Below are positions 314 through 63,000 of a stretch of 64,000 nt of DNA, in pieces (position 1 is the stretch's first letter; each line of letters begins with the position of its first letter). The notes beneath the pieces are model-generated. The model saw only the letters and a program-made list of their open reading frames with translations, searched no databases and was not told the origin of the DNA. The position numbers and the translations under genes were made by a program. This stretch comes from Patescibacteria group bacterium. GTDB taxonomy: Bacteria > Patescibacteriota > Minisyncoccia > Phycocordibacterales > Phycocordibacteraceae. The DNA lies in the NCBI GenBank assembly GCA_038064595.1, contig JBBTSV010000009.1, forward strand, positions 8,769-72,768, in the 5' to 3' direction.

Positions 314-1180
314 ATGATGCGCAACGCCAAATCGCTCAAAATCCTCTGTATCGCCGGGCCGACCGCTTCGGGTAAGTCTCCGCGCGCGGTCGAGGAGGCG
401 CTTCTGCGCGAGGGCGAGATTATCTCGGTCGATTCACGCCAAGTCTACCGCGGGCTCGACATCGGGACCGAGAAGATCACTACCGAGGAGATGCGAGACG
501 TGCCGCACCACCTGATCGACATTCGTGAGGTACACGAGCCCTACTCTGCCGGCGACTTCGTCGCTGATGCGACGCGCCTAATTGAGGAAATCTCGGCGCG
601 CGGCAAGCTGCCGATCTTGGTAGGCGGAACGCACTTTTACTTTGACGCACTCCTCTTAGGGCTCCCTGCGGTAGAGGGTGATCCGATGCTGCGCGCAGAA
701 CTTGAAAAGCTCTCGACCGAGGAGCTTTTTGCGCGCGTCCGCTCCGCGGACGCGCGCAGAGCGAGCGAACTCGACCCCAAAAATCGTCGGCGCCTCATTC
801 GTGCGCTCGAAATAATCGCCTCCCTCGGCAGCGTCCCGTCCCGCGCTGTACCTACGCCCCCTTTTGGAACAAGGTTTAACCTTGTTGAATGGATCGTGAT
901 TGACCCCTCGAGAGAGGAGTTGCGGCCGCGCATTGACGCCCGGCTTGAGGCCGCGCTTGCGCGCGGCCTCGTCGACGAAGTGCGTCGTGTGCGCGAGCAG
1001 GTCGGCGACGCGCGCCTCAACGAGCTCGGGCTTGAGTATAAAATCGTAGGTGAATATCTGCGTAATGAGCGCAGTGAGGAGTCGCTCCTCCCCGCTCTCT
1101 CGAGCAAGCTCTGGCAGTATGCGCGTCGCCAGAAAGCCTGGCTGCGCAAACTCCAACTTGGGGGTCCGACCCCCAAGTAA
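314..1180 (+). CDS. miaA: tRNA dimethylallyltransferase
   Basis: ILCIAGPTASGKS P-loop, DSRQVYRGLDIGTEKIT, HHLIDI, GGTHFY: the canonical MiaA motif order. Start is taken at the internal MM just before the P-loop. The C-terminal LGGPTPK plus stop codon is encoded by the P1 palindrome. Confidence 0.85.
   Translation: MMRNAKSLKILCIAGPTASGKSPRAVEEALLREGEIISVDSRQVYRGLDIGTEKITTEEMRDVPHHLIDIREVHEPYSAGDFVADATRLIEEISARGKLPILVGGTHFYFDALLLGLPAVEGDPMLRAELEKLSTEELFARVRSADARRASELDPKNRRRLIRALEIIASLGSVPSRAVPTPPFGTRFNLVEWIVIDPSREELRPRIDARLEAALARGLVDEVRRVREQVGDARLNELGLEYKIVGEYLRNERSEESLLPALSSKLWQYARRQKAWLRKLQLGGPTPK
1157..1177. repeat. P1 palindromic element copy a (CTTGGGGGTCCGACCCCCAAG) forming the miaA 3' end and stop
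   Basis: Perfect 21-nt palindrome, identical to copies at 2350, 45442 and 57947. Confidence 0.9.
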
Positions 1181-1215: not shown

Positions 1216-1485
1216 CTAGACCCTCTTGTCGATCTGAATCAGCAAGTCGTCGATCTGCTTTTTCATCACCTCAAAACGCTGTTTGGTGTCGGCCTGCGCC
1301 GCAAACTCCTGTTCGAGGGGCTCCAGGATGGTCTGCAGTATGCAGACGAGCTCTCGGAGCTTTTCTGTTCGCCTTCCTCTCATGGGTTGGTTGACCCATA
1401 CCAGGTTCTGAACATCGAGCTCCGCGACCGCGAAATTAACCGCGACCAGAGACTCGATGTGGATTAGGCAGTCCTTTGTCATCAT
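1216..1485 (-). CDS. Hypothetical small protein (89 aa)
   Basis: ORF starting MMTKDCLIHIESLVAV..., with an AAAGGAG Shine-Dalgarno sequence 5 nt upstream of the ATG on the minus strand (plus-strand ctccttt at 1491-1497). No recognisable family. Confidence 0.45.
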   Translation of the reverse strand: MMTKDCLIHIESLVAVNFAVAELDVQNLVWVNQPMRGRRTEKLRELVCILQTILEPLEQEFAAQADTKQRFEVMKKQIDDLLIQIDKRV

Positions 1486-1537: not shown

Positions 1538-1572
1538 TATAAAAACAAAAGGCCCGTCACAATCGACGGGCC
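1538..1572 (-). terminator. Intrinsic terminator (GGCCCGTC-acaatc-GACGGGCC followed by a T-tract on the minus strand)
   Basis: Perfect 8-bp GC-rich stem with a 6-nt loop, followed on the minus strand by TTTTGTTTTTAT. Confidence 0.75.
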
Positions 1573-1831
1573 TGGGCGGGGACGAGAACGATTGGTTTTG
1601 GGGACTACTTCCCCGGGGCTCCTCTGGCTGCCCATCGTTCTCGCCCCCGACTTACATTGCATCCACGCCAGAGGTGGATGGCTGCACGCCTCACTCGGCG
1701 TCCCGCGTCTACACAGCTCAAGAGCGGGTCGAGGCCTCACACAGACCTCGGAAGGGCTTGTTGGCTTATTACTCCTATCTCCACACCGGGAGAGACAGAG
1801 GAGCGGCTAAGCTCTGAAGGCAAACAAGCTA
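1546..1831 (-). ncRNA. Candidate structured ncRNA or riboswitch-like leader (about 290 nt), identity unknown
   Basis: Bounded by a TTGACA-16-TATACT promoter and a perfect intrinsic terminator on the minus strand. No credible ORF. Internal long-range complementarity (GGGGACGAGAACGAT at 1577-1591 with ATCGTTCTCGCCCCC at 1636-1650) and a nested hairpin GGGGA-ctact-TCCCC. No match recognised by eye to the tmRNA, RNase P, SRP or 6S consensus. Confidence 0.35.
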
Positions 1832-1836
1832 GTTCA

Positions 1837-1864
1837 AGTATACACTCCCCCACCCTTTTGTCAA
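1837..1864 (-). promoter_or_regulatory. Sigma-70-like promoter, TTGACA-16 nt-TATACT, minus strand
   Basis: Plus-strand tgtcaa at about 1859-1864 and agtata at about 1837-1842 give a perfect -35 and a 5/6 -10 on the minus strand. Confidence 0.55.
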
Positions 1865-1976
1865 CCCCCGTAAGTGGTTCTCCCCATCTGGCCCGCAAAA
1901 CGCAGTGCGCTGCTGCTGGTATGATATATCATACCTTTTTTCCCTGATCGACTTAGAGACCTACGATGTCCGTAGG
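1859..1976 (-). repeat. Promoter-containing repeated module, copy A (about 118 bp; includes the GGTATGATATATCATACC palindrome and a TACGATGTCCGTA motif)
   Basis: Near-identical to 44621-44737 from the -35 TTGAC through gcgttttgcg-gtgcgctgctgctggtatgatatatcatacctttt-ccctgatcgacttag-gac-tacgatgtcc. Confidence 0.8.
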
Positions 1977-2038
1977 TGGGAGTTATAAACACACAAGCCC
2001 ACACGGGGTGGGCTTGTTTTCGGCGCGAGAAGGGGCGA

Positions 2039-2263: not shown

Positions 2264-2345
2264 GAAAGGACCTTTCTTGTTGTCAGGAGACATTCCCGAC
2301 CCAGACTCAAAGCTACCCTCCCTCCCCCACCCCGTCAAGAATTCC

Positions 2346-2374
2346 CCAACTTGGGGGTCCGACCCCCAAGTTGG
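2346..2374. repeat. P1 palindromic element copy b (extended 29-nt palindrome CCAACTTGGGGGTCCGACCCCCAAGTTGG), intergenic
   Basis: Perfect palindrome, immediately followed by GGGACTTACGATGTCCGTA, which supplies the stop codon of the next gene. Confidence 0.9.
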
Positions 2375-2377
2375 GAC

Positions 2378-2806
2378 TTACGATGTCCGTAGATTGCCGT
2401 TGCGGGATTTGAGGTACTTCCAGCCGATGAGGAGGAAAGAGACGACAGTCAGAACCTGCGCGGCGAGCCGCGCCGCGTCGTCTCGGTAGAATGGATAGAG
2501 ATCCATGAACCCGCCAGACGTGACGGGATTTGAGGCGATGAAAATAATCGAGAGTGGCACCGCCCACACTGCCAGCTTGAGCCAGGAGTTAAAAATGGGT
2601 CGGGAAATCAGGACCAAAATAATCGTGAGAGGTAGGAGGTAGAGAGAAAAATTATAGAATGGGTTTGTAAAGTACTGGTAGATATGGCTGACCCAATTGC
2701 TATAACATACTCCGTATGAATACATACACCAATAACTAAAGTGGGCAAATCCGACGCCAACCAGTGCGATGACGAGTGGCACACTCTGCATGAGTTTGTT
2801 TTTCAT
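2378..2806 (-). CDS. Hypothetical polytopic membrane protein (142 aa)
   Basis: Several hydrophobic helices, no recognisable family. The stop codon lies within the ACGATGTCCGTA motif. Confidence 0.5.
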   Translation of the reverse strand: MKNKLMQSVPLVIALVGVGFAHFSYWCMYSYGVCYSNWVSHIYQYFTNPFYNFSLYLLPLTIILVLISRPIFNSWLKLAVWAVPLSIIFIASNPVTSGGFMDLYPFYRDDAARLAAQVLTVVSFLLIGWKYLKSRNGNLRTS

Positions 2807-2812
2807 TTTTGG

Positions 2813-5800
2813 TCAAAAGAGTTTTTTGAATGCAGTCCAGAGTCCATACGCACCATTATAGACTGCCGCGCCCACCTTCTTGAGCCATGACTGTTGAGAG
2901 ACTGCGTCAAGAGCTGATGCTGTCTGCGGGACATTCACTGGTGCCTTTTTCACTGTCGTAGTAGCCACTGTTACTGTCTTCTTGGTTTGAGCTACCTTCT
3001 TAGTAGTCGTGCTCGTAGCGGGGGGATGAGTGATAACGGGGCTCAGAGCCACTGTCGCTGTCGTCGTAGCGATAACAGGAATGGAGATGGCGCCAGCGCC
3101 TCCGCCAGAGCTTGCCTCTGGTACTGGAGGGGCTTGAGCTGGAGGCTCGTAGCTCACGGTCTCACCGGCCTTAAAGCCAATCAAGAGATCCTCTCTCCCA
3201 TCTCCGTCCTCATCCACCCGGAGCGTAGAGGCTGTGTCGAGGCCGCCGGAGATGTTGAGTCTCACGCTCGTTTTGGGAGTCACGGGGACGTCTGCGATGC
3301 TGCTTGAGGTGGCCACCACCCCACCCACGCTCTCCTCAATGTCGAGTGTGAAGGTCCCAGTATCTTGACCATACAACGTGAGTTCATATCGGCCACTCTC
3401 GGGTACGATGAGGTATTTAAGCTCGCCGAGCTCTCCGTAGGTCGAGCTTGGGATGTCTTCTGTGACCGACCCGTCGACAGCAAGGCCGGTGATATTGCCG
3501 AGTGAGTCTGTGGCCTGGAGAGTGAGTGGTGAGTGGAGGAAAAAGATGAGTTTCTTTTCGGAGGTGGATTCTGGTTGAGTAACAGTGATGAAGTTTGGCA
3601 AAGGATCAGAACCCTCCCTAATACTGTTTTGAATAAAATCCTTTAGCAAAGGTATCTCAAAAAGATTTTTGTGATCAAATTTTGTTTTAGTGCCGGGAAT
3701 GTTATTGATCTTTGCCAAATCAACCCAATACCTCTTCACGGCTGTGCTGGAGGCCATCATGATCGCGCTCGGGACGGTGACGGTACCATCGCCGTCTTCG
3801 ACAAAGATGGGCTTGTAGAGACGCTTTGACTTCCCGGGAGGAGAGTAGAAATTGATCCCTGCGAGTGTGTCGATGCCCCACCCGGCGATCTGATCGACTT
3901 TTATGCCGTCTGGCGGGGTCCAGAAGTCGAGTGCCGCGTGCTGCCTATTTGCGTAGTCAATCAGATCGGCATTAAGAATCTCTGCAGACTTGACGTCTTT
4001 TTCTTCCGGCTTCTCTCGCCCACCCTCCTTGGCGAGAAGAAAGTCGGCGAGCGCGACACGGTTTGCTATCGTTGCGCCATATGCTGCAAACTCTTTGGTG
4101 TACCCATTTCCTGAAAAGCGTATGACCGGGTGCGCTGCATCTCCCATAGTGCTCTCAAGGTAGTACTCCGACGGGAGGAGGTGGTATGCCATAGGCGCAT
4201 TCTGTGCGAGCGCCCGAGCGGTCGCTTCGTGCACAATCGAGAACCCGAGAAACGAGATGCCTTGGTTGTATCCGTACAAAAGCGCCCCGATGCTCTCCGG
4301 GGCGCCGCTCTGCGGCGCCCCGACCATAATCACCTTGTCCACCAGCGTGGGAGCTGCACTCCCGAGCTTTTTCAAGAGCGCCTTGGCAAGAAGACCGCCA
4401 TTGCTGTGCGCGACAATTGTCACCTTTCCGCTCTTCGATGAGGCGGCGAGCCGACGTAACTCCTGCAGTACATACGGAGTCGATGTGGCTCGCAAGTCTC
4501 CGGAGTAGTAGATGCGGCCATCTTTATTGTTCCCATAGGCGAGAATGTCGTCGAGAGAAAGTCGCCAATCATAGGCGATCGGCTCCCAGTCGTTGATAGT
4601 CCCATCGGCTTTGAGCGCATCCATCTGTGCGACGAGCGAGTCGTAGATCTTCCCGCCGAAGGGGATCTCTTCTATCACATCGCGCTCTTTTGCGTAAATA
4701 TCAAAACGCGCGCTCGTGCCGTCGGCGTTGAGATAGAGGTCTTTCATATCCGTATCACCCGCAGGTTCCCAAAGCTTCTCCGTCCCGCCATCATAATCAG
4801 GACGATAGAGCCGGCTCCCCTCTATACCGGGCAGAAAGAGAACATTTGAGAAGCCTGAGGTCGCCACGCCCCACGACGTAAGCCAAGGTGAGAACTGGAC
4901 CGTACTTCCCGTGACATACTCGACTGCGTTACCCGTGCCGCCAAGATTATCCGGGTCGTTATAAGGGCCACTCACATCGCCCCAGAAATTGTCGGTGGCA
5001 TCGATCGTTGCGGCGACATGTACCACAAGCCCTCCTGAGGTGTTGTCCGCGATCTTGTTCTGCGAGAGCGTATACAAAGAATTTGTTCCGTACGTGCTTA
5101 TACCCGTGTCATTCTGCGTAATTTCAGTATTGGTAAGCGCCAGTTCATTCGAAAATTCAGGCCTCGACCCGTAATCGGCGACCCCCGCTCCGTACGGAAA
5201 CTCAGAAATAATCGAGTCTCGCATTTCTATTTTCCCACCGTTAAAGGTAACGAGCGCGTCCCCCGTGCCCCCGATCATGCGCACCCCAGTAAGCGCGAGG
5301 CGTGCATCAGCAACTTCTATCGCGTCAAAAGCATCGGTATTGGTTATAGTCGCATCCTGTACGGTGAGTGACGACTGATCGTAGACCGCTAGGGCTGGTC
5401 CGTCTGAGATGGTATCGAACCGCGCATCGCGCATTTCAATAGAGCTCTGGACAAAGGTCATGACCGCTCCAGAGCTGTCAGAAATAGAACGTATCGTTGA
5501 GCTTGCCACACGAGCGCTACTGCCCACGTATACCGCAATAACTTGAGAGGAAACACCCTCAGCAAGAAAGTCAGAGATTGATGCGTGGCTGTTCTGGTAG
5601 ATCTGGATGCCGAAGTCCACGTTGTGCAGCGTGACCTGTGCAAGTGTCGCAGTACTCCCATAGCTAAGCTCGACCGCGGCATCTAAGATACGCTCAAAAC
5701 GGGCACGCTCAAGAAAAAGAGTTCCTCCTGATACAAGGATCCCACGATCGCTATCCTTCACAACAGAGTCAGAAAAGGTGAGTGGGTTCTTGCTGTCGTC

Positions 5801-16829: not shown

Positions 16830-17522
16830 CTACGAGATCCAGTCAATCGGGGTCTCGCCGTGAGCCTCCAGATAACCGTTCACTTTTTTAAAATGGCCAT
16901 TGCCGAAGAAACCCGATGCGGCCGAGAAGGGTGAGGGGTGCGCGGATTCAAGCACCAGGTGTTTAGTGCGGTCAATATGCGCGCCCTTGGCGCGAGCATA
17001 GTTGCCCCACAGCATGAAGACGAGGCGCGTGCGCTCCTCGGAAAGCGTGCGGATAACTGCATCGGTAAACTGCTCCCATCCTTGATTCTGATGCGAGCCA
17101 GCCGTGTGTGCCCGCACGGTGAGAGTTGCATTGAGAAGTAAGACCCCCTGCCTCGCCCACCGCGTGAGATCTCCTCCGCGATTGATGGACACTACGTGTC
17201 CATCAATCGCGCCGTATTCATCTGCAATTTCTTTGAAAATGTTTTGAAGTGAGGGCGGGGTCGCGACCCCCTCATCGACCGCGAAGCAGAGACCGTTGGC
17301 CTGATGCGCCCCATGGTAGGGGTCTTGGCCGAGAATAACGACCTTCACCTGCTCAAAGGGGCAAAGATCAAACGCTCTGAAGATATTCTTGGGCGCGGGA
17401 TACACCACTCCCTCCTGGTATTCTTTTTTTACAAAACTGGTCAGCACTGTGAAATATTCTTTTTCAAATTCACCAGAGAGCTTCTCCTTCCACGTTTTCT
17501 CAATCTTCACCTCCATAAACAT
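16830..17522 (-). CDS. ung: Uracil-DNA glycosylase (family 1)
   Basis: VVILGQDPYHGAHQANGLCFAV (GQDPY water-activating loop) and HPSPFSA near the C-terminus. The start codon overlaps the upstream gene's stop as TAATG, inside a REP. Confidence 0.9.
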   Translation of the reverse strand: MFMEVKIEKTWKEKLSGEFEKEYFTVLTSFVKKEYQEGVVYPAPKNIFRAFDLCPFEQVKVVILGQDPYHGAHQANGLCFAVDEGVATPPSLQNIFKEIADEYGAIDGHVVSINRGGDLTRWARQGVLLLNATLTVRAHTAGSHQNQGWEQFTDAVIRTLSEERTRLVFMLWGNYARAKGAHIDRTKHLVLESAHPSPFSAASGFFGNGHFKKVNGYLEAHGETPIDWIS

Positions 17523-17547
17523 TAGGACACTGGGTGTCCTAACTTTT
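17520..17547. repeat. REP palindrome copy R1 (TTAGGACAC-TGG-GTGTCCTAA)
   Basis: Same palindrome flanks the RAYT gene at 48662, 49338 and 49391. Here it encodes the last eight residues and the stop codon of the MGMT-like gene. Confidence 0.85.
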
Positions 17548-40846: not shown

Positions 40847-43800
40847 CTACTCAGCATCTGGCTCGGGTGGCAGGTTGAGTGGCTCAACATCAAGCGCGAG
40901 GCCGCGGATCTGATTGGTAAGAACCGCAAAGGACGCCGGCGTGCCTGAGTGACTAATCGGCTCGCCCTTCACAATAGCGTCAAAGGCTGCCGAACGGCCC
41001 TGAATATCGTCAGACTTGATGGTGAGCATTTCGCGGAGTGTGTACGCTGCGCCATACCCAAGCAGCGCCCACACTTCCATTTCACCAAAACGTTGCCCAC
41101 CGTTCTGTGCTTTACCGCCCAAGGGCTGTTGGGTGATAAGACTGTAGGGACCAATCGAGCGCATGTGGATCTTGTCTTCAACCATGTGATGGAGCTTCAA
41201 GATGTACATGTACCCAACCGCGATATGTTGTGCAAAGGCCGCACCCGTCCGTCCGTCAAAGAGCTGCATCTTACCGCCGCGATCAAAGCCCGCAGCTTCA
41301 AGCTCGTTACGGATCTCGTCAGGTGTCGCCCCAGCAAACGGCGGAACTACCGCTTGGTACCCTAGGGTGTGAGCAGCAAGCCCGAGGTGCATCTCGAGGA
41401 TTTGGCCGAGATTCATACGGCTCGGGACGCCAAGCGGGGTGAGAATGAGGTCGATTGGGTTCCCGTCTTTATCAAACGGCATATCGGCGATCGGGAGCAC
41501 TCGTGAGATCACTCCCTTGTTTCCGTGGCGACCTGCGAGCTTGTCACCCACTGAGACGTTGCGCACCTGCGCCACCGTCACCACAATCTTCTTGATGACA
41601 CCGCTCTCAAGCTGGTCTCCCTTCTCGCGTGAGAAGACCCGCACACCGATAGTACGTCCCCGCTTGCCTCCCTCCATGCGAAGACTGGTGTCCTTTACGT
41701 CCTTCGCCTTATCACCAAAGATGCTGCGCAGGAGGCGCTCCTCGGGCGTGAGCTGGGTCTCGCCCTTCGGCGTCACCTTACCGACGAGGATGTCACCTGG
41801 ACGTACCTCTGCACCAATGCGGATCACGCCCTCTTCATCAAGATTTTTGAGACGGAGCTCACCGACATTTGGAATATCGTGCGTCGTGGTCTCCGGACCG
41901 AGCTTGGTGTCGCGTACGACACACTCGAAATCTTCAATGTGCACGGTAGTAAACTTGGCTTCCTCCACGAGACGCTCTGAGATAATGATGGCATCCTCAT
42001 AGTTGGCACCACTCCAGCTCATGAAGGCAACGCGCACATTCTGACCGAGCGCGAGCTGACCATGATCGGTCGAGGAGTTATCGGCGAGCACATCACCTTT
42101 CTTGATCGTATCTCCAAGCACCACAGACGGGCGTTGCATGAAGGTTGAGTTCTGGTTGGTCTGGGTCAAGCCCTGGAGGCGATATTCTTTCTTTTTCCCC
42201 TCTTTGTTCTCGACGACAACCTTGCGCGCATCGACGTAGGAGACGGTACCGGACTCTGTGGCGACCACCAAGCGACCGGTACTCATTGCAGCGTGCTCCT
42301 CAATACCCGTCGCCACGAGCGGCGCTTCAGGAATGAGCACAGGAGTTGCCTGCTTTTGCATGTTAGAGCCCATCAGAGCACGGTTTGCGTCGTCGTGATC
42401 AACAAATGGGATCATGCAGGTTGCGATACTAAACATTTGATAGGTTGACGCGTCCATAAGCGTGATCTGTTCACGCGACACAATAATAGGGTCACCCTTG
42501 AAGCGCGCCTCGACCCGATCAGTGATGATCCGGTGTTGCTCGTCGAGCTGGGTCGCGCCGTGCGCAATGAGTTCAAGCTCTTCGTCGAGCGCGTTGAGAT
42601 ACACAATCTCTTCTGTCACTTTCCCGTTCTTCACCTTGGCGTATGGAGTCTCAATAACGCCAAAGTCATTGGTACGCGCGTGGGTCGCCAGGCGCAAAAT
42701 GAGACCAATGTTTTGTCCTTCTGGGGTGTGGATGGGACACAGGCGACCGTAGTGAGAAGGGTGCACGTCACGCACCTCAAAGCCTGCACGCTCGCGCGTG
42801 AGACCGCCCGGCCCGAGCGCGGAGAGGGTGCGCATATTCTCGAGCTCCGCGAGAATATTCTGCTGATCCATAAACTGCGAGAGTTGGTTAGCCGTGAAGA
42901 ACTCATGCACCGACGCGTGGAACGGGCGCGGATTCACAAGTGCCATCGGGAGTGTGGTCTCGCTCTCGATTGTCGACATGCGGTCTTGGATGTTGCGCTT
43001 CATGCGGCTCATGCCGACCCGCATGCGCGCCTGTAAGAGCTCGCCGACAAAGCGTACGCGACGGAACCCAAGGTGATCGATGTCATCTGGGCGCGCATGC
43101 GGGTCGGCATTGAGCTTCGTAATCTCTGAAATGATGCGGACGAAGTCAGCGAGCGTGAGGACACGCTTCTCGAGTGCTTTCTCGGTGGTGGGGAGACCAA
43201 AGCGAGAGTTAAGACGGTGACGCCCCACCTTACCGAGGTCGTAACGTTCAGCCGAGAAGAGCGACTGAACGAAGTTCTTTGCGTTTTCAGGGGTCGCGAG
43301 ATCGCCATCGCGCATACGGCGATGGATCTCGATATACGCTTCCTCAACCGACTTCGCCTCCTCATGCTCAAGAGTCGCCTTAATAGCGGCAAGTGCGAGC
43401 GGGTCGTTGGCAAAGTGCTTAGTGACCGCCTCGCCCACGCCACCACCAAAGACCGTGAGGAGTTCAGTGATTGGAAACTTGCGCTTACGATCGATCTTCA
43501 CAAAGATCGCGCCATCTGCTTCAGAGTCAAACTCGATCCATACCCCGCGAAGCGGGATGATCTTAGCGCCAAAGAAGGGCTTCCCGCGCAAGAGTTCAGA
43601 AACAAAAAATACCCCAAAGCTTCGTGCAAGCTGTGGGACAATCGCACGCTCCACCCCCGAAACGATGAATGAGCCGTGTGGCGTCATCATCGGCATGTCA
43701 GCAAGGAAGATCTCCTGTGACTTCTCCGAGCCGAGCGTCTTATTAATGAGCTTCACGGTCGCTTTGACTGGAGCCTCATAGGTGCGCATATTCTGACGCG

Positions 43801-44026
43801 CGAAATCCTCATCATACTTTGGCTCACCCACTTCAAACTTCTCAAACTGGAGTTCAAACTTTTTACCCGAGTAGTCGGTAATAGGCGAGAACTCACGGAA
43901 CAATTCCGCGAGACCGTCCTTAAGCAACCAGTCGAAGGAGCCACGCTGGTGGCCGACGAGGTCAGGGAACGACACCTTGGGAGCCCGGTACGCACCAAAG
44001 GTCTTCTGCACGAGGTTCTTGCGCAT
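40847..44026 (-). CDS. rpoB: DNA-directed RNA polymerase subunit beta
   Basis: Conserved GRHGNKGV, rifampicin-region and fork-loop motifs; length 1059 aa. Confidence 0.95.
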   Translation of the reverse strand: MRKNLVQKTFGAYRAPKVSFPDLVGHQRGSFDWLLKDGLAELFREFSPITDYSGKKFELQFEKFEVGEPKYDEDFARQNMRTYEAPVKATVKLINKTLGSEKSQEIFLADMPMMTPHGSFIVSGVERAIVPQLARSFGVFFVSELLRGKPFFGAKIIPLRGVWIEFDSEADGAIFVKIDRKRKFPITELLTVFGGGVGEAVTKHFANDPLALAAIKATLEHEEAKSVEEAYIEIHRRMRDGDLATPENAKNFVQSLFSAERYDLGKVGRHRLNSRFGLPTTEKALEKRVLTLADFVRIISEITKLNADPHARPDDIDHLGFRRVRFVGELLQARMRVGMSRMKRNIQDRMSTIESETTLPMALVNPRPFHASVHEFFTANQLSQFMDQQNILAELENMRTLSALGPGGLTRERAGFEVRDVHPSHYGRLCPIHTPEGQNIGLILRLATHARTNDFGVIETPYAKVKNGKVTEEIVYLNALDEELELIAHGATQLDEQHRIITDRVEARFKGDPIIVSREQITLMDASTYQMFSIATCMIPFVDHDDANRALMGSNMQKQATPVLIPEAPLVATGIEEHAAMSTGRLVVATESGTVSYVDARKVVVENKEGKKKEYRLQGLTQTNQNSTFMQRPSVVLGDTIKKGDVLADNSSTDHGQLALGQNVRVAFMSWSGANYEDAIIISERLVEEAKFTTVHIEDFECVVRDTKLGPETTTHDIPNVGELRLKNLDEEGVIRIGAEVRPGDILVGKVTPKGETQLTPEERLLRSIFGDKAKDVKDTSLRMEGGKRGRTIGVRVFSREKGDQLESGVIKKIVVTVAQVRNVSVGDKLAGRHGNKGVISRVLPIADMPFDKDGNPIDLILTPLGVPSRMNLGQILEMHLGLAAHTLGYQAVVPPFAGATPDEIRNELEAAGFDRGGKMQLFDGRTGAAFAQHIAVGYMYILKLHHMVEDKIHMRSIGPYSLITQQPLGGKAQNGGQRFGEMEVWALLGYGAAYTLREMLTIKSDDIQGRSAAFDAIVKGEPISHSGTPASFAVLTNQIRGLALDVEPLNLPPEPDAE

Positions 44027-44222: not shown

Positions 44223-44528
44223 CTACTTCTCGCCTGTCTTTGCGTCGTCCGACCCGGATTGAAAATCTTCAACCGAGAACGGGCTCTTCATGCCTGGCGT
44301 CCAGTCCTCGACTTTGATTTCCCCATCAGTCTTTTCATACTCACCTACGTTATAGGCAATGAGTTGGGAGAATCGCTTCATATGTTCGGGAGTAAATGCA
44401 AAGACTTGCGCATTCGCCCCAGACAGTATTGCTAGTAGGATTGTCTTACCAGCATTGCCACGCATCACTGCCACATTGGTGTCGTCTGCAAACTGCTTCG
44501 GCGCACTTCTCCAAAATTGTTCATTCAT
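44223..44528 (-). CDS. Hypothetical small protein (101 aa) downstream of repeated promoter module copy B
   Basis: ORF from the internal ATG (MNEQFWRSAPKQ...), because the predicted transcription start of module B lies downstream of the longer ORF's start. Contains a P-loop-like GNAGKT but has no assignable family. Confidence 0.3.
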   Translation of the reverse strand: MNEQFWRSAPKQFADDTNVAVMRGNAGKTILLAILSGANAQVFAFTPEHMKRFSQLIAYNVGEYEKTDGEIKVEDWTPGMKSPFSVEDFQSGSDDAKTGEK

Positions 44529-44595: not shown

Positions 44596-44737
44596 ACTAT
44601 CACCTTTTACTGCACCCCGCGTCAACCTCTGCGCAATGGTTCACACCCCCTTGGCTCGCAAAACGCGGTGCGCTGCTGCTGGTATGATATATCATACCTT
44701 TTCCCTGATCGACTTAGGGACTTACGATGTCCCTATA
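44596..44737 (-). repeat. Promoter-containing repeated module, copy B
   Basis: Shares the -35 TTGAC, gaacca, gcgttttgcg, GGTATGATATATCATACC palindrome and GGGACTTACGATGTCC motif with copy A at 1859-1976. Confidence 0.8.
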
Positions 44738-45025
44738 AAAGCGCACCGCCCCGGGTGGGGCGGCGTGGCGCACAAGGTCGATCACCGTTTAGTCTTCTTA
44801 TTGTTCGGCGTGACCGACTTCTTGGCACGGCTCTTTGCCGCTGCGAAATCACCAACGTAGACGCTGACGAGGCGACGCACGCCCGAATCAGGATGATTCA
44901 TCTTGTCGAACATCCTCGCCTCGTGTGCGAGTGAAGGAACTCCTTTTGCCATGGCGAACTCCTTTGGTTGACACGTCTGGGCCTGCGAACAGGCTTGGGG
45001 ATTAGTTTACCACTCAAAACGCGAA

Positions 45026-45694
45026 TTATTTCTTCTCGCGCCACTTTTCAATCTCGGCGTGGTGGCCGGTTTGGAGGACTTTTGGCACGCGATAATTCTT
45101 CTTTTTGTATGAAATAGTTTCTGGCCGGGTGTAGACGGCACTTGACGCGACGCGACGCTCCTCGACGGAGGCGTCCTTACCGAGAACGCCCGGGAGCCGG
45201 CGCGTCACCGCGTCGACTACCGCGAGCGCCGGTAATTCCCCACCCGTGTAGACCGCCTCGCCCACGGCATACTCCTTCACTGGCGCGAGGGTCTTGAGGA
45301 TTTTCTTGGCGCGCTCATCGATCCCCTCGTAGCGGCCGCATACGAGGATCACGTCGCTATACTTTTTTATAAGCGCGTCAGCGTCTTTATTGGTGAACTG
45401 CTTCGCGCTCGGGCTGAACCACACAATCACCGATTTCTTCAACTTGGGGGTCCGACCCCCAAGTGATTTCTGAACGGCTTTGACTACGGGAAGCGCCATC
45501 ATCACCATCCCGGGGCCCCCGCCGTAGGGCTTTTCATCTACTTTCTTGTAGCTCCCTGCAGGGCCCGCGACGAAGTCGCGGGGGTTCTGATACTTCACCA
45601 CTATCTTCTTCTCCTTACGCGCACGTCCGATAATCGACGCGCCCAAATATGCGTCGCACGCTTCTTCAAAAAGAGTGACGAGATGGAATCTCAC
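45026..45694 (-). CDS. trmD: tRNA (guanine37-N1)-methyltransferase
   Basis: SPOUT-fold TrmD motifs (VILVCGRYEGIDERA, GGELPALAVVDAV). Contains an in-frame 21-nt P1 palindrome encoding LGGRTPK. Confidence 0.85.
   Translation of the reverse strand: MRFHLVTLFEEACDAYLGASIIGRARKEKKIVVKYQNPRDFVAGPAGSYKKVDEKPYGGGPGMVMMALPVVKAVQKSLGGRTPKLKKSVIVWFSPSAKQFTNKDADALIKKYSDVILVCGRYEGIDERAKKILKTLAPVKEYAVGEAVYTGGELPALAVVDAVTRRLPGVLGKDASVEERRVASSAVYTRPETISYKKKNYRVPKVLQTGHHAEIEKWREKK
45442..45462. repeat. P1 palindromic element copy c, in frame inside trmD
   Basis: cttgggggtccgacccccaag. Confidence 0.9.
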
Positions 45695-48582: not shown

Positions 48583-48603
48583 TACGGACATCGTAAGTCC
48601 GTA
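48583..48603. repeat. TACGGAC-atcgtaa-GTCCGTA stem-loop motif (fourth copy of the ACGATGTCCGTA family)
   Basis: 7-bp inverted arms; related copies at 1958, 2373 and 44717. Confidence 0.6.
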
Positions 48604-48645
48604 TATTTACTTCGCCACGGCGACGGCTTCGTCGAACTTGACGGA
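48600..48645 (-). other. Duplicated remnant of the smc 3' end (encodes LSVKFDEAVAVAK plus stop), a direct repeat of 49752-49797
   Basis: cggcgacggcttcgtcgaacttgacggagag is shared between the two sites. Both encode the identical SMC C-terminal peptide with a few silent differences. Confidence 0.7.
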
Positions 48646-48661: not shown

Positions 48662-48688
48662 AAGTTAGGACACCCAGTGTCCTAACTT
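48662..48688. repeat. REP palindrome R2 (AAGTTAGGACAC-CCA-GTGTCCTAACTT)
   Basis: Perfect palindrome; contains the RAYT stop codon. Confidence 0.9.
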
Positions 48689-49329
48689 TCTATCTCATCC
48701 GCTCTTGATGCGAGGTCTGGATTTGAAATGATTTCCTCTATAGTTTGTTCATATTCGCTTGGCATTCCGAGCACAGGAGAAATCTCATTGGACTCGATAA
48801 TTGAAGGAAAATTATGATTACCAAAATAGTCGAGATGACTACTCCACCGATAATTTTGCAAAGCAGTCAGAGCACCTGATACATCCTGTACCTCTCCTTT
48901 TCTCCATTCGGGATGCGTATAGTCAAGCGGGTTCAAATGAATATAGAACGGGATGTAAAGGAAGTGGGCGTCTCGCTCAATGAGCACTTTACGGTATTTG
49001 CCTTGCCACAAGACACCCGATCGCTCGTATCGCCTATTAAAGTATTTTGTGTACCCCATATTCATCTTGTGCATGAACATTGAAATTCCGTTTTCGACCC
49101 TTTCTGATACCAAGAGATGATAGTGATTTTTCATCAGACAGAAAGCATGAATATCAATGAGCCGCTCGCGTTTACGGTGCTCGTCCTTCCGTTCATTCAA
49201 AATATAATTCGGTACGGGATGTACGTCATTGAGAACGAATAAATCATGGGTAAACCTCACTCTGTCTTGATCGTCCATAACAACGTCTCGTTTATCGACT
49301 CCGCGCCCAATCAGATGCCAAAAGTTCAT
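48682..49329 (-). CDS. REP-associated tyrosine transposase (RAYT; IS200/IS605 TnpA-like HUH-Y1)
   Basis: HUH motif in CLMKNHYHLLV and a downstream catalytic Tyr region (YTKYFNRRY), about 215 aa. Flanked on both sides by the same palindrome, which is the classic REP-RAYT arrangement. Confidence 0.8.
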   Translation of the reverse strand: MNFWHLIGRGVDKRDVVMDDQDRVRFTHDLFVLNDVHPVPNYILNERKDEHRKRERLIDIHAFCLMKNHYHLLVSERVENGISMFMHKMNMGYTKYFNRRYERSGVLWQGKYRKVLIERDAHFLYIPFYIHLNPLDYTHPEWRKGEVQDVSGALTALQNYRWSSHLDYFGNHNFPSIIESNEISPVLGMPSEYEQTIEEIISNPDLASRADEIES

Positions 49330-49337
49330 AGCTCTAT

Positions 49338-49359
49338 GTTAGGACACCCAGTGTCCTAG
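49338..49359. repeat. REP palindrome R3
   Basis: gttaggacacccagtgtcctag, immediately upstream of the RAYT start codon. Confidence 0.85.
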
Positions 49360-49390
49360 TTTTTGTCCTATCCCCTGTTTACCATTTCTG

Positions 49391-49420
49391 AAAGTTAGGA
49401 CACTGGGTGTCCTAACTTTC
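49391..49420. repeat. REP palindrome R4 (inverted relative to R3; forms a REPIN-like doublet with a 31-nt spacer)
   Basis: aaagttaggacactgggtgtcctaactttc. Confidence 0.9.
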
Positions 49421-55490: not shown

Positions 55491-58004
55491 ATGGCCGCGC
55501 GATTTATTCATCTCCATACTCACAGCCACTACTCCTTCCTCCAGGCGCTGCCAAAAATTGATGAGCTCGTGGAGAAGGCGGTCGCAGAGGGGATGGACGC
55601 CCTCGCACTCACCGACGCTGGCAACATGCACGGCGCGATTGATTTCTACAAGGCCGCCACCAAGGCCGGGATTAAACCGATCCTTGGCGTCGATGCGTAC
55701 CTCGCTCCCCGCTCGCGCCACGATCGCGACCCACAGGTGGACAGCAAACGCTCGCGCATCGTGCTCCTTGCAGAAAATAATACGGGCTACACCAATCTCC
55801 TCGCGCTCGTGACACAATCGTGGACGGAGGGGTTCTATGAGCGCCCGCGCCTCGATAAAGAGCTCTTACGCGCGCATGCCACAGGCGTGATCGCGGTGAT
55901 CCCCTCATTTGCAGGCGATGTCGCCCAACACCTGCGCGCCGGCGACCCTGCCGGCGCGGCCGCTGCCATCGCAGAATATAAAACTATATTTGGTGTGGAG
56001 AATCTCTTTCTTGAGATCACGCACCACCCCAAGGTCGCTGGACACGAGGTACTGATGAAAAAAATAGTCGCGCTCGCGAGAGAAACGAAAACCCCGCTCC
56101 TCGCCCAGCACGATGTCTACTACCTCTCTCCCGACGATCGCGCGGCGACCGAGATCATGCGTCGTATCCAGCACGGCGAGCGCGGGAGAAATGAAGATGA
56201 AGACTTCTCCTTTATTAGTGACGCAACAGCGCGTTCTTTTTTCAAAGACCTCCCCGACGCGATCGAGAACTCTGGAAGAATCGCCGACCGCTGCAGCCTC
56301 TCTTTTGAGCTCGGCAAGTGGACCTTTCCTGCAGTACCCGTCTCACCCGGATTTGCCGACCATAATGAAGAGCTACGCGCCAAAGCATTTGCCGGGATCA
56401 GAGCACGCAGCCTTGAGGAGACGAAGGAGGTCGTCGACCGCATCGAGTACGAGTTGAAAATTATTATCGACAAAGGGTTCGCGGTGTACTACCTGATCGT
56501 CGCCGACCTCCTCGGCTTTGCGCGCCGCTCCGGTATTCTCACTACCACGCGAGGCTCCGCCGCAGGGAGCCTTGTCGCCTATCTCATTGGTGTGACCAAC
56601 GTGAACCCGCTTTTCTATAAACTCCCTTTTGAACGCTTCCTCAACCCCGAGCGCCCCAAGGCGCCAGACATCGACATGGACATAGCCGACAATCGTCGTG
56701 ACGAGATGATCGCCTATACCAAGCAGAAGTACGGCGAGGATCACGTCGCTCAGATCGGCACCTTCGGCACTATGATGGCGCGTGCCGCGGTGCGCGATGT
56801 CTCACGGGCGCTCGGTCACGCGTACGCGACCGGTGACCGGATCGCTAAACTCATCCCGATGGGCTCACAGGGATTCCCGATGACCATTGATCACGCTCTC
56901 GATCTTGAACCAGATTTGAAAGTGCTCTACGACGAAGACGACGACGCGCACGAGATTCTTGACCTCGCGAAACGTATTGAGGGGTGTGTACGTCACGTCG
57001 GCGTCCATGCGGCCGGTGTGGTGGTCGCCCCGACCCCTCTCATTAATTGGACACCCATCCAGCCCGACCCAAAGGGCACCGGCAAGCTCATCACTCAGTA
57101 CGACATGTACTCGATCACCGACGAGTATGGCGGGGTCGGACTGCTCAAATTCGACTTCCTCGGGATTAAGAACTTGGCGATTCTCGCCGACGCTGTCTTG
57201 CGGGTGAAAGAGACTCGCGGGATCGATGTTGATATCGAAAATGTCCCCATCGACGACACCAAGACGTATGAAATGCTGGCGCGCGGCGAGACTGAGGGCA
57301 CGTTTCAGTTAAACGGCTCAGGTATGACGCGCTGGCTTAAAGAGCTTCGCCCTTCGACTATCCACGACATCAACGCCATGGTTGCGCTCTACCGACCCGG
57401 ACCGATGGAAACAATCCCTCAGTATATTGAGCGTAAACATAGCCCAAAACTCATCCGCTTCGTTGACCCACGGATGAAAGACTATCTTGATTTCTCGTAC
57501 GGCTTGCTCGTGTATCAAGATGACGTGCTCCTTACCGCGATCACTCTTGCGGGCTACTCCTGGCTTGAGGCCGACCAGCTCCGCAAAGCGATGGGCAAAA
57601 AAATTCCAAAAGTGATGCGGGCTGAAAAAGAGAAGCTCCTCAAGGGGTTTATAGAATATGGAAAGCTCACTCCTGAAAAAGCTGAGAAACTCTGGTCGCT
57701 CATCGAGCCCTTTGCTGCCTACGGCTTTAACAAGGCACACGCCGCAAGCTATGGTAAGGTCGCCTACCAGACCGCGTATATGAAGGCAAATTACCCTGTC
57801 GAATATCTCTGCGCACTTCTCACTGCCGAGTCGGGCGACACCGAACAGGTCGCTGTTTTTGTCGGGGAAGCGAAGCGTATGGGTATCTCCGTCCTCCCGC
57901 CAGACGTCAACGAGAGCGGGAGCGACTTCACGGTGGTGCAGCGTGACTTGGGGGTCGGACCCCCAAGTTGGGGGAGGCCATCCGTTTCGGTTTGTCTTCT
58001 ATAA
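55491..58004 (+). CDS. dnaE: DNA polymerase III alpha subunit, N-terminal 837 aa (PHP, palm and fingers); frame broken at a P1 palindrome
   Basis: PHP motif FIHLHTHSHYSFLQA; DnaE catalytic-region length. The ORF ends 37 nt after a P1 element and the downstream ORF continues the protein in another frame. Confidence 0.85.
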   Translation: MAARFIHLHTHSHYSFLQALPKIDELVEKAVAEGMDALALTDAGNMHGAIDFYKAATKAGIKPILGVDAYLAPRSRHDRDPQVDSKRSRIVLLAENNTGYTNLLALVTQSWTEGFYERPRLDKELLRAHATGVIAVIPSFAGDVAQHLRAGDPAGAAAAIAEYKTIFGVENLFLEITHHPKVAGHEVLMKKIVALARETKTPLLAQHDVYYLSPDDRAATEIMRRIQHGERGRNEDEDFSFISDATARSFFKDLPDAIENSGRIADRCSLSFELGKWTFPAVPVSPGFADHNEELRAKAFAGIRARSLEETKEVVDRIEYELKIIIDKGFAVYYLIVADLLGFARRSGILTTTRGSAAGSLVAYLIGVTNVNPLFYKLPFERFLNPERPKAPDIDMDIADNRRDEMIAYTKQKYGEDHVAQIGTFGTMMARAAVRDVSRALGHAYATGDRIAKLIPMGSQGFPMTIDHALDLEPDLKVLYDEDDDAHEILDLAKRIEGCVRHVGVHAAGVVVAPTPLINWTPIQPDPKGTGKLITQYDMYSITDEYGGVGLLKFDFLGIKNLAILADAVLRVKETRGIDVDIENVPIDDTKTYEMLARGETEGTFQLNGSGMTRWLKELRPSTIHDINAMVALYRPGPMETIPQYIERKHSPKLIRFVDPRMKDYLDFSYGLLVYQDDVLLTAITLAGYSWLEADQLRKAMGKKIPKVMRAEKEKLLKGFIEYGKLTPEKAEKLWSLIEPFAAYGFNKAHAASYGKVAYQTAYMKANYPVEYLCALLTAESGDTEQVAVFVGEAKRMGISVLPPDVNESGSDFTVVQRDLGVGPPSWGRPSVSVCLL
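57947..57967. repeat. P1 palindromic element copy d inside dnaE (net 20-nt insertion flanked by direct TTGGGGG repeats)
   Basis: gacTTGGGGGtcggacccccaagTTGGGGGaggcc. Confidence 0.9.
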
Positions 58005-58699
58005 AAAATTTCGGCGAGGGGATCTCGGAAGCGATTATCGCCGAGCGTAAAGCGCACGGCTCCTACGCCTCGCTCTCCGACTTTCTCGCGCGTGTGGGCT
58101 CCAAAAATTTAAATCGTAAATCGCTCGAATCACTGATTAGGTGTGGTGCGCTCGACTCTCTCACCACCGCCACCCACAAACGCGGAACGCTTCTTGAGAA
58201 CATTGAGACCTTGCTTTCCTTCCATCGCGAGGCGACTGCGATCGCTCCTCAAGATTCGCTCTTCGGCACACTCATGGCACCACCACCACTCACGCTCCCC
58301 GAGGGTGCTGCGACGTCACTCACCGACAAACTTATGTGGGAGAAGGAACTCCTCGGGATCTACGTGAGCGGGCATCCGCTCGACGCACACGCGGCTCTCA
58401 CCCAGAAAGCAGTCCTCTCTATAGCAAAGATTAAAGAAGAAATGCAGCCGGGACTCCTCCTGATTCTCCCGGTCCTCCTCACCACCGTGCGCAGTATCCT
58501 CACCAAGAGCGGAGAGAAGATGGTCTTTCTCACGGTTGAAGATAAGAGTGGGTCCATTGAGGCGGTCGTCTTCCCGAGGCTCCTGAAGGAACATGCGCGC
58601 ATTCTCACCCCGGGCGCGTGCCTCCTGATTAAAGGCAAGGTCTCGGTGCGCAACGGCGAGCCCTCGCTCGCTATCGAGGAGCTGAAGCTGCTTTCCTAG
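57968..58699 (+). CDS. dnaE: DNA polymerase III alpha subunit, C-terminal part (HhH, OB region), in a different frame from the N-terminal part
   Basis: Begins LGEAIRFGLSSIKNFGEGISEAII, the conserved DnaE IRFGL.AIK.(V/F)G segment that normally follows ...DFTVV... Confidence 0.8.
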   Translation: MGEAIRFGLSSIKNFGEGISEAIIAERKAHGSYASLSDFLARVGSKNLNRKSLESLIRCGALDSLTTATHKRGTLLENIETLLSFHREATAIAPQDSLFGTLMAPPPLTLPEGAATSLTDKLMWEKELLGIYVSGHPLDAHAALTQKAVLSIAKIKEEMQPGLLLILPVLLTTVRSILTKSGEKMVFLTVEDKSGSIEAVVFPRLLKEHARILTPGACLLIKGKVSVRNGEPSLAIEELKLLS

Positions 58700-60000: not shown

Positions 60001-63000
60001 TTAGGCTCCGAGGACGGCGAGGGCGCGGGCGAGGGCGAGCTTCGCACCGGTCACGCCCGTTGAATAACTTGAGTCAATCGCATTACTCAAAGAAGAGATA
60101 AGCTTCTCCAGGGTCGGAGTGTCGAGGCGAGCTGTGAGCCGCGCAATGTCGGGCGCACAGGGCGTGCCGTCAACACGCGCGCGGTACGCGTCATCGAGGA
60201 GACATGCGGTGGCCGAGAGAAGCTCTTCTGCAGCTCCTCCTCCCCGTACTTCTTGACGCAGCCCCGCGAAGACCGCCGTGCGATCACCCTCAATAAGCGC
60301 AGCGACAAAGCCGCGCACTGATGCCGGGGCCGCACTCTCTGGTACCAACGCTACTGCTGGGGTCTCCGCAACAACCGGCTCTACGTTCTCGTAGATCGGC
60401 TCTACATTTTCATATATTGGCTCAACATTCTGGTGTTCCTTCGCCGCCGCCGCGCTCGCATGACGACGAGAGAGACCTTTCACAATATCGTCGATCGAAA
60501 GCGATCCTCCTTCAGCAAACGACTTAAAGCCGTCATAGGTCGAGTAGGTACGAGGTGCGTCTGACGCGGGTGGAGGTGTGTGTTGAGGTTGAGGCGTTGG
60601 AGCCGGCGAAGCAGAGGCGGCAAGAGCCACGGTAGGAGCTGACTCAGATGAATTAAGAACGGTGTGAATCCGAGCACCAAACATGCGGAATTGGCGATTC
60701 GTAAAGGGTACTGCCCGGAAGAGAATAAGATAGGCAACCGCAAGCGCCCACATGATAAGCGCTAGCCAATAGAGCGTCGTTCCGAGGGGTCCGAGAGAGA
60801 GACCAGTCTGTGGAATCTGCGCGAGGTAGAGGTACGCAAGCGACTGTGCTTGTGGAAATACTGCAAGACTCACTGTGGGTGGCGGCGCACTGCCACCGCC
60901 ACCGCCACTAGGCGGCGGTTGCCCACAGTTTCCGCTACAACCACCGCCGCCACCCGACGAGTCAACAATGAGTGCTGTCGAACAGGTGACGGTTTGCCCG
61001 TTCGTCCCTGTGAACGTGCCCACATAGGTGTACGTCTGTGCGTTGGTCGGCGAAACTCTTGTCGAACTCGGGATAGTGGTGGTCGCGCCGATACCGTTAT
61101 CTATCGTTACACTTTGGACATTAGTGCCGCCCCACGAAAGGGTCGCGCTGCCACCGGTCGTATAGCGCGTTGGCGAGAGGCTCATCGTACAGGTCGGCGC
61201 GGGCGGAGTGGTCGTCACCGTGACAGTTGCCGAGCATACTGCTGATGCACCCGAGGCGCCGGTTACCGTACCGGTATACGTTGTCGTTGTAGTCGGAGTG
61301 GTCGATGTCGCACCTGACACTATCGAGGTCACTGCACCGATCCCTTGGTTAATCGAGAAGGCAGTAGCGTTGCTGGTATTCCACGAAAGAGTCGAGGTTG
61401 CACCCTGCTGAATTGCGGCCGGGGTCGCCGTGAGGGTACAGGTCGGTGCCGGAGGAGTAACTGAGACCGTCACCGTATCCGCACACGTCACAGTACCGCC
61501 CGGACCCGTTGCGGTGCCGCTATAGATGGTGGTCGCGGTTGGTGTGACCGAGCGAGAACCGCCCGCAAGAGGAGTCACTGATCCCACACCACGATCGATA
61601 GTGAATGAGGTGGTGTTGGTGGTGGTCCACGCGAGACTGGAGGCAGTGCCTTCGACAATCGTCTTGGGAGACGCGGTGAGGGTGCAGGTGGGGGCGGGGT
61701 GGTCAGTAACGGCCACGGTGTCAGCACAGGTATTGGTCAACCCATTTGCTCCGGTCACGGTGCCGGTGTACGTGGTCGTCACGCTCGGTGAGACCGAGCG
61801 GGAACCGCCAACAACGGGGGTCACAGAACCAATCCCCTGGCTGAGGGAGATGGATGTCGCATTGGTCGTCGTCCATGCAAGTGAAGAAGCTGCGCCGTTG
61901 AGTATGGATGCGGGAGACGCCGTGAGGGTACAGCTCGGGACCGGCACTGCCGTCACCGTCACGGTGGCGGTACATGGTGTGGAACCTCCCGGACCCGTTG
62001 CGGTGCCGCTATAGATGGTCGTCGTTGAGGGTGAGACCGAACGAGAGCCGGCAGCGACTGGCGTCACCGAACCAACGGCGTGATCAATGACAAATGAGGT
62101 GGCGTTGGTGGTAGTCCACTCAAGTGAAGATGCCGAACCGGTTTGAATGATGGAGGGAGATGCGGTGAGGGTGCAGGTGGGTGCGGGAGGGGGTGTCACC
62201 GTGATCGTTCTGCTGCAGGTATCTGAACCGCCTGCGCCCGTCACGGTGCCGGTGTACGTGGTCGTCACGCTCGGTGAGACCGAGCGAGAACCACCAATAA
62301 CGGGTGTCACGGAGCCAATCCCCTGATTGAGGGAGATGGATGTCGCATTTGCCGTGTCCCAGGAGAGGGTGGTTGAGGATCCGGCTTCAATGGAGAGCGC
62401 TGATGCAGTGAGTACGCACGTGGGAGGAGGAGGTGGAGGAAGTGGCGTCACCGTCACCGTATCCGCACACGTCACAGTACCGCCCGGACCCGTTGCGGTG
62501 CCGCTATAGATGGTGGTCGCGGTTGGTGTGACCGAGCGAGAACCGCCCGCAAGAGGAGTCACTGATCCCACACCACGATCGATAGTGAATGAGGTGGTGT
62601 TGGTGGTGGTCCACGCGAGACTGGAGGCAGTGCCTTCGACAATCGTCTTGGGAGACGCGGTGAGGGTGCAGGTGGGGGCGGGGTGGTCAGTAACGGCCAC
62701 GGTGTCAGCACAGGTATTGGTCAACCCATTTGCTCCGGTCACGGTGCCGGTGTACGTGGTCGTCACGCTCGGTGAGACCGAGCGGGAACCGCCAACAACG
62801 GGGGTCACAGAACCAATCCCCTGGCTGAGGGAGATGGATGTCGCATTGGTCGTCGTCCATGCAAGTGAAGAAGCTGCGCCGTTGAGTATGGATGCGGGAG
62901 ACGCCGTGAGGGTACAGCTCGGGACCGGCACTGCCGTCACCGTCACGGTGGCGGTACATGGTGTGGAACCTCCCGGACCCGTTGCGGTGCCGCTATAGAT

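Follow-up and report, generated by a model that had tools for sequence, protein, structure and literature searches.

Two near-identical intergenic modules, each with the same perfect 18-nt palindrome, lie upstream of predicted promoters in the genome of a Patescibacteria bacterium, and this arrangement raises the question of what binds the palindrome and whether the modules control the genes that follow them. To our knowledge, transcription control is almost entirely unexplored in Patescibacteria, whose genomes are tiny and encode few regulators. The 64-kb window analyzed here was taken from a Patescibacteria contig of 139.5 kb from Hainich groundwater. In a preliminary description, the palindrome had been interpreted as an operator through which one DNA-binding protein co-regulates two small minus-strand transcription units, with a mobile promoter cassette as the alternative.

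Results

Two Copies of One Intergenic Cassette

Local alignment on the minus strand delimited a cassette of about 116 nt that is intergenic and occurs twice in the 64-kb window, as copy A (1859-1976) and copy B (44620-44737), extending from a hairpin (TA[C/G]GGACATCG...) to the TTGAC of a -35 hexamer. The order of blocks that had been reported, TTGAC, gaacca, gcgttttgcg, palindrome and stem-loop, proved correct. The left block of 29 nt, which reads TGGCCCGCAAAACGCAGTGCGCTGCTGCT in copy A (1889-1917) and aligns with 44652-44680 in copy B, is identical at 27 of 29 positions, and the palindrome GGTATGATATATCATACC, the putative site of a TrpR-family protein, matches exactly at 18 of 18 positions (1918-1935 and 44681-44698). 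The spacer agrees at 18 of 20 positions with a 2-nt indel and the hairpin at 16 of 21, while conservation is weaker in the stretch adjoining the -35 hexamer (22/33). Similarity between the two copies ends at both cassette borders, with identities of 9/31 in the 30 nt beyond the hairpin end and 18/34 in the 30 nt beyond the -35 hexamer. On the upstream side, a terminator scan placed terminator-like hairpins of the preceding minus-strand genes 17 nt before cassette A (1993-2017, minus strand) and 7 nt before cassette B (44744-44765, minus strand). The occurrence of the module in two places is confirmed by this alignment and by Logan assemblies of four other sequencing runs, in which both copies were recovered. 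The contigs of these independent assemblies break inside the stretch shared by A and B, as a repeat present in two copies would cause them to do.

The complete cassette was not recovered again in any of 89 loci returned by public genome and metagenome scans, in which the metagenome collection lacks the window's own contig and may also lack other contigs of the source genome. The 29-nt block and the spacer were found in this genome only, the block being absent from every fetched locus, and since these parts are so restricted, the whole cassette is, judged by sequence comparison, a lineage-specific duplication. An inverted repeat joining the two cassette ends was present in neither copy, and no flanking target duplication was detected; with these features missing and only two copies of the whole element in 64 kb, a MITE was rejected, as was a phage origin, which found no match among 50,697 phage records. 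The proposal of a mobile promoter cassette consequently gained no support beyond the two copies themselves. According to the preliminary description, many copies without association to gene starts would have favored a MITE; such copies do occur inside genes of other genomes (see below), but the features of a MITE do not accompany them.

Predicted Promoters and Downstream Units

Consensus matches identified sigma-70-type hexamers 16-18 bp apart next to both cassettes, namely the predicted promoters P_A (TTGACA-16-TATACT; 1837-1864, minus strand; 11 of 12 consensus positions) and P_B (TTGACG-18-GATAGT; 44596-44625, minus strand; 9 of 12 positions). A third related promoter region, P_C (2311-2392, minus strand), has the hairpin element (2373-2388), the TTGAC (2338-2334) and the spacer in common with P_A, and carries a 31-nt palindrome (2345-2375) in place of the 18-mer. 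The 11-mer spacer GGGTGGGGGAG occurs in exact form only in P_A and P_C within the window.

Downstream of P_A lies a candidate structured RNA of about 290-296 nt (1540-1835, minus strand) with a fold z-score of -5.2 relative to shuffles, which ends in a strong terminator (1573-1550). Copy A had been thought to drive a unit composed of this RNA and an 89-aa ORF (1216-1485, minus strand; no family match; start placed one codon later by the gene caller). The candidate RNA remains part of that unit, but the terminator separates it from the ORF. No homologue of the candidate RNA was present in any fetched locus, no match in the window reached the Rfam gathering score (weak, chance-level matches only at 1400-2450), and no tRNA or tmRNA was found. 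On the other side of the window, the predicted P_B faces a 101-aa ORF (44223-44528, minus strand), as described earlier, followed by rpoB (40847-44026). However, no minus-strand terminator is predicted between the two genes, and the unit may thus not be small. Four orthologues of the 101-aa gene (59-67% identity) do not adjoin rpoB, and the palindrome and hairpin are absent upstream of all four. Outside the window, parB (8282-8429 of L098) is located about 1.5 kb to the left of window position 1, and the copy A region may accordingly be near the replication origin.

The palindrome itself is situated about 65 bp upstream of each -35 hexamer and not over the promoter; by arithmetic on the predicted promoters, its center lies at about -96.5 (A) and -100.5 (B) from the predicted starts. 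This difference of about 4 bp places the two copies out of helical phase. The distance to P_A and P_B is too great for classical repression. No other match to GGTATGATATATCATACC with up to three mismatches was found in the window or in 100 shuffles, and the 14-nt core of the 18-mer had no match elsewhere in the window.

The Hairpin Element and Further Palindromes

The stem-loop at the upstream end of the cassette is a copy of a hairpin element, GGAC-N7-GTCC (GGACTTACGATGTCC), that occurs four times in the window (1956, 2373, 44717, 48586). The earlier observation of a stem-loop shared by both modules thus stands, but the element is not confined to them, being found also at 2373-2388 (P_C, minus strand, motif match) and 48586-48601, and the register of the fold differs between copy A (GAGACCTACGATGTCC; 1956-1977, minus strand; ACCTACG/CGTAGGT) and copy B (TAGGGAC-TTACGAT-GTCCCTA; 44715-44735, minus strand; TAGGGAC/GTCCCTA). 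The fourth copy (TACGGAC-ATCGTAA-GTCCGTA; 48583-48604, plus strand) directly follows the stop codon of an RNase R-like (RNB-domain) gene. A fifth match, in dnaG, was treated as chance, as it deviates at two positions and codes for a conserved motif, ITDIVS. In other Patescibacteria the hairpin lies in frame inside murD, uvrB, tatD and rsmI (L013 2671, L032 4940, L063 3600, L079 7440), and the 21-mer inside uvrB of L032 is the same as that of copy B. The bases flanking the hairpin differ between copies yet remain complementary, and identical extended versions occur in unrelated genes. In tatD, the hairpin of one genome and the 18-mer of another fall in the same protein loop.

These observations bear on an explanation at the RNA level, according to which the cassette would be transcribed by read-through from upstream and its hairpins would serve as back-up terminators or RNA-stability elements. 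Such a role is consistent with the start of both cassettes 7-17 nt past a terminator, with the palindrome and a T-run that the terminator scan flagged as terminator-like on the plus strand, with the position of the fourth hairpin copy behind the RNase R-like gene, with the stop codon of a 142-aa gene (2378-2380) in the loop of a hairpin element, and with folds whose stability moderately exceeds that of shuffles (z about -3). We nevertheless consider it very improbable, since the genes and the T-run are on opposite strands, no more than 7 AT-rich pairs form the stem of the 18-mer, copies A and B do not share one hairpin register, and the link to TrpR-family genes described below would be left unexplained.

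A further palindrome, CCCAACTTGGGGGTC(C/G)GACCCCCAAGTTGGG, has four copies in the window (1146-1178, 2339-2375, 45432-45464, 57936-57968), which lie at the 3' end of miaA, in a promoter region, in frame inside trmD (SLGGRTPKL) and in dnaE. The last gene, encoding DNA polymerase III alpha, is split into two ORFs in different frames (55491-58004 and 57968-58699), with the break exactly at the 31-nt palindrome ACTTGGGGGTCGGACCCCCAAGT, which contains three runs of five G or C (57936-57968); an indel introduced by the assembly, a genuine frameshift or an element that is bypassed could each account for the break. The window also contains a REP-RAYT unit (48664-49416) with an IS200-like gene (48682-49329, minus strand; Y1_Tnp, 36.7 bits) flanked by GTTAGGACACCCAGTGTCCTAAC palindromes, of which a further copy is found at 17521 (17514-17546). 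Near the end of the window, a 1298-aa minus-strand ORF (60001-63986) with long, near-identical tandem repeats (units of about 243 and 490 nt) probably encodes a repetitive surface protein.

Occurrence of the 18-mer in Other Genomes

A scan of one genome per species returned 73 loci with the exact 18-mer, compared to about 9 expected by chance (596 Gb / 4^18, our calculation). About 42 of the 73 loci come from some 20 Patescibacteria MAGs, which are labelled Kaiser-, Adler-, Zambryski- and Giovannonibacteria, Paceibacterota and the like and carry 2-7 sites each. The consensus in Patescibacteria is longer than 18 nt, roughly (G/A)CTGGTATGATATATCATACCAG(C/T), although the apparent conservation among the loci of the DNA scan is inflated by their detection through exact matches. 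Variants of the palindrome include TG, AG and AC variants and a CGCGATATATCGCG type. On the complete chromosome OY969413.1 the six sites are scattered (280, 495, 851 and 910 kb of 993 kb), which ruled out a clustering of the kind seen for parS or matS sites.

About 21 loci belong to Bacteroidota (among them L004, L008, L025, L002, L039, L043 and L066, including Flavobacterium), in which the 18-mer lies upstream of a short helix-turn-helix gene that is XRE-like by eye. Their sequences suggest an independent use of the same palindrome, and because these copies precede XRE-like (by eye) genes, the 18-mer is not exclusive to one protein family.

TrpR-Like Genes between Palindromes

In the Patescibacteria loci, pairs of palindromes 465-530 bp apart enclose a gene of about 140 aa. 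In all 13 loci from the DNA search that contain this TrpR-like ORF, the ORF is both preceded and followed by an exact or near-exact palindrome. Since these loci had been found through the palindrome, a reverse test started from the protein, and all four homologues picked by protein similarity alone (70, 53, 37 and 36% identity) were likewise bracketed by perfect palindromes of 18-24 bp (TGTATGATATATCATACA, AGTATGATATATCATACT, ACTATGATATATCATAGT). The core TATGATATATCATA is kept in three of these four homologues with different outer bases, while the most divergent one combines a different recognition helix with a different palindrome, ACTATCGCGATATATCGCGATAGT. A protein and its cognate site co-vary in just this way.

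The two families of flanked proteins, all from other genomes, both pass the Pfam Trp_repressor profile (PF01371; 29.1 and 45.9 bits, cut-off 27) and are named 'Trp family transcriptional regulator' by NCBI; they do not reach the cut-offs of the NCBIfam models for TrpR and YerC. An AlphaFold model of a flanked protein reached a pLDDT of 76.5 overall and of 85-94 over approximately residues 11-100, and the top 42 PDB matches in Foldseek were all TrpR or TrpR-like chains (TM 0.6-0.8 on target). At the TrpR-like genes one site is found 3-34 nt before the ATG and must therefore overlap the promoter or the transcription start, so that the operator-over-promoter arrangement, absent from the window, is found at these genes elsewhere; the second copy follows the gene. 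Two observations speak against reading the palindrome as a TrpR-family site, namely that the same 18-mer is found beside two TrpR-like families whose recognition helices differ, and that many copies lie inside coding sequence, an unusual place for a classical operator.

Four TrpR-like genes have their ATG 4 nt past the palindrome and lack a Shine-Dalgarno sequence, as would fit a leaderless mRNA whose 5' end is about 7 nt downstream of TATCAT. This arrangement lends some support to an explanation in which the palindrome is a promoter core with -10-like hexamers on both strands, which would either initiate a short plus-strand RNA or provide the minus-strand units with a second promoter further upstream, the rest of the cassette being leader. 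In agreement with it, both window copies read TGGTATGAT, an extended -10, on the plus strand, copy A is followed on that strand by a hairpin and TTTT about 60 nt downstream, and the center GATATATC is kept even in the divergent palindrome. However, copy B has no plus-strand terminator, a small plus-strand ORF common to A and B was ruled out because the 2-nt indel puts the copies in different frames, the arms of a bare promoter would not vary in step with the neighboring protein, and copies inside genes would fire antisense and internal transcripts in essential genes. A promoter core thus appears quite unlikely to us.

A TrpR-like gene was found neither in the 64-kb window (tblastn) nor in the 4 kb to its left; a 139-aa ORF to the left of the window was considered and turned out to encode a membrane protein, and the region of the candidate RNA, considered as a remnant of a TrpR gene, showed no similarity. 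Window positions 2461-4447 are syntenic with the Kaiserbacteria locus L056, in which a palindrome-TrpR-palindrome unit adjoins the same membrane-protein and 1100-aa genes, and due to this synteny copy A may descend from such a unit. Elsewhere, the neighbors of TrpR-like genes also include uvrB, ruvA, recJ, rnhA, thyA and tmk. Most TrpR-like homologues in public assemblies are on very short contigs (0.8-3 kb), as expected if the flanking palindromes break short-read assemblies, and TrpR-like genes may for this reason be under-represented in MAGs.

For the two promoters of the window, these results uphold the initial interpretation of the palindrome as an operator only in part: as the putative site of one DNA-binding protein it, or a close symmetric variant, brackets TrpR-family genes in every case examined, but in the window it lies far upstream of both -35 hexamers. 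Co-regulation of the two units is not supported, in view of this distance of about 65 bp, the orthologues of the 101-aa gene that have no palindrome, and the lack of a TrpR-like gene in the window.

Palindromes inside Genes

Many of the Patescibacteria 18-mers are located inside long ORFs, whose products were identified by Pfam and PDB searches (L010, L013, L023, L024, L027, L029, L032, L033, L035, L049, L062, L072 and others). Repair and replication proteins make up 7 of the 15 host families by our own count (RecG, UvrB, UvrC, HhH-GPD glycosylase, methylpurine glycosylase (MPG), Pol III delta' (holB) and TatD); the other hosts are MurD, dihydroorotate dehydrogenase (pyrD), a class-I W/Y tRNA synthetase, Dus, TsaD, enolase, a ZIP transporter and a glycosyltransferase. 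The in-frame reading is nearly always GMIYHT, with two copies in the other open frame, YDISY. Orthologues from different MAGs carry the 18-mer at the same position in murD (five), recG (three) and holB (three of three compared, with two further metagenome holB loci that look alike by eye), although identity in the flanking DNA is only 50-80% and the residues next to the 18-mer are free to vary. On the basis of these alignments, the repeated use of one position by several genera is not a matter of chance, despite the bias of an exact-match search. In enolase the six codons of the 18-mer replace native codons without a gap, and in UvrB both the 18-mer and the hairpin lie in insertions relative to solved UvrB, of 13 and 19 aa, the 18-mer being in the one of 19 aa. 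The set of genes that bear the 18-mer differs between MAGs.

Copies of this kind could also be selfish or drifting palindromic DNA (REP-, RPE- or MITE-like) that copies itself into tolerant places, in which case the cassette would consist of two elements duplicated together and have no regulatory role. Unrelated palindromes indeed behave alike, as illustrated by the hairpin in its four host genes and by the third palindrome inside trmD and dnaE in the window. Moreover, the elements of UvrB occupy insertions, sub-families with identical extended flanks are found in unrelated genes, the 18-mer gene set is variable, a true REP-RAYT system is present in the window, and orthologues of the 101-aa gene occur without the cassette. 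We regard this explanation as unlikely nonetheless, given the low copy number (2-7 per genome), cassette ends without terminal inverted repeats or target duplications, the exchange of six enolase codons at unchanged length, and the invariance of the 18-mer at orthologous positions amid diverged flanks. In addition, the gene flanked by the palindrome encodes a DNA-binding protein, with which the palindrome co-varies, and not a transposase.

Discussion

The closest known system is the TrpR/HisR operator-repressor pair. TrpR and HisR (YerC) bind palindromes of about 20 bp with TGTA...TACA arms and often autoregulate (PMC9413887). The pair described here resembles this system in its partner, a small, presumably dimeric helix-turn-helix protein of the TrpR fold (PF01371) known from other genomes and predicted to bind the site, in a perfect palindrome of 18-20 bp with (T/G)GTA...TAC(A/C) arms, in the position of the site at the regulator's own gene, and in a lineage-specific motif that changes with the protein. 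The variant TGTATGATATATCATACA even has the TGTA...TACA arms of the published TrpR and proteobacterial HisR motifs, with a spacing that differs by 2 bp. In contrast to the known proteins of less than 110 aa, however, the proteins found here have a C-terminal extension and a length of about 140 aa, their genes are always followed by a second site, many sites are inside coding sequences, and no amino-acid biosynthesis genes are among the neighbors seen at these loci.

Other systems share single traits with the 18-mer. Similar to REP/REPIN sequences and their RAYT genes, of which the unit at 48664-49416 is an example in the window, short palindromes flank a single gene on both sides and are dispersed in addition, but the gene flanked by the 18-mer encodes a DNA-binding protein without a nuclease domain, the 18-mers are few per genome compared to tens to hundreds of REPs, and they lie inside genes; a flanked Y1 transposase gene with abundant, extragenic repeats is found for the GTTAGGACACCCAGTGTCCTAAC palindrome and not for the 18-mer. 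Rickettsia palindromic elements are selfish DNA in protein-coding genes, with insertions of about 100-150 bp. Like them, the palindromes described here are in frame in tolerant protein parts of housekeeping genes, whereas the unit is only 18-24 bp long and sometimes replaces codons with the length unchanged. The sites of parS, matS, SlmA and Noc are few, near-exact palindromes per genome, often in genes and recognized by one helix-turn-helix protein. The 18-mers are also few, near-exact and often inside genes, but they are scattered on the complete chromosome and the protein family is a different one. The searchable literature yielded no paper with the 18-mer and no account of palindromic elements in Patescibacteria genes, and the pair of TrpR-family protein and site appears to be undescribed there.

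On balance, we lean towards the view that the 18-mer is recognized by a dimeric TrpR-family protein whose gene lies outside the window, and that it forms part of two paralogous cassettes. Each cassette fills the gap that separates the terminator of a minus-strand gene from the -35 hexamer of the next minus-strand promoter, and is built of two short palindromic elements that occur throughout Patescibacteria genomes. A dimeric helix-turn-helix protein of about 140 aa would bind the 18-mer and, as the overlap of its site with the promoter or start at its own gene suggests, would regulate its own expression. On the two window copies, the protein would be located some 97 and 100 bp ahead of the predicted starts of P_A and P_B. 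At such a distance it might stop transcription that runs on from the upstream gene, or it might exert a long-range effect on the promoters; alternatively, it might merely mark the DNA, similar to the copies inside genes.

More tentatively, and with considerable doubt on our part, these sequences may belong to an undescribed system of Patescibacteria (class Paceibacteria and relatives), in which a TrpR-family protein is paired with a near-invariant palindrome of 18-24 bp that brackets its own gene and is kept in frame, nearly always as GMIYHT, inside housekeeping genes, with repair and replication over-represented. Such a system would represent an intragenic regulon or a form of DNA marking, and the cassette would be its intergenic outpost.

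For the window itself the outcome is more modest, as the cassette is real while any role at the two predicted promoters is putative. For Patescibacteria, a conserved DNA-binding protein together with an exact site that can be read from sequence provides a concrete handle for experiments. The copies in essential genes, which occupy the same positions across genera, reveal selection on a DNA sequence superimposed on the coding sequence. If regulatory, they would represent an unusual way of controlling repair genes, and if selfish, they would constitute a new, small relative of the Rickettsia palindromic elements.
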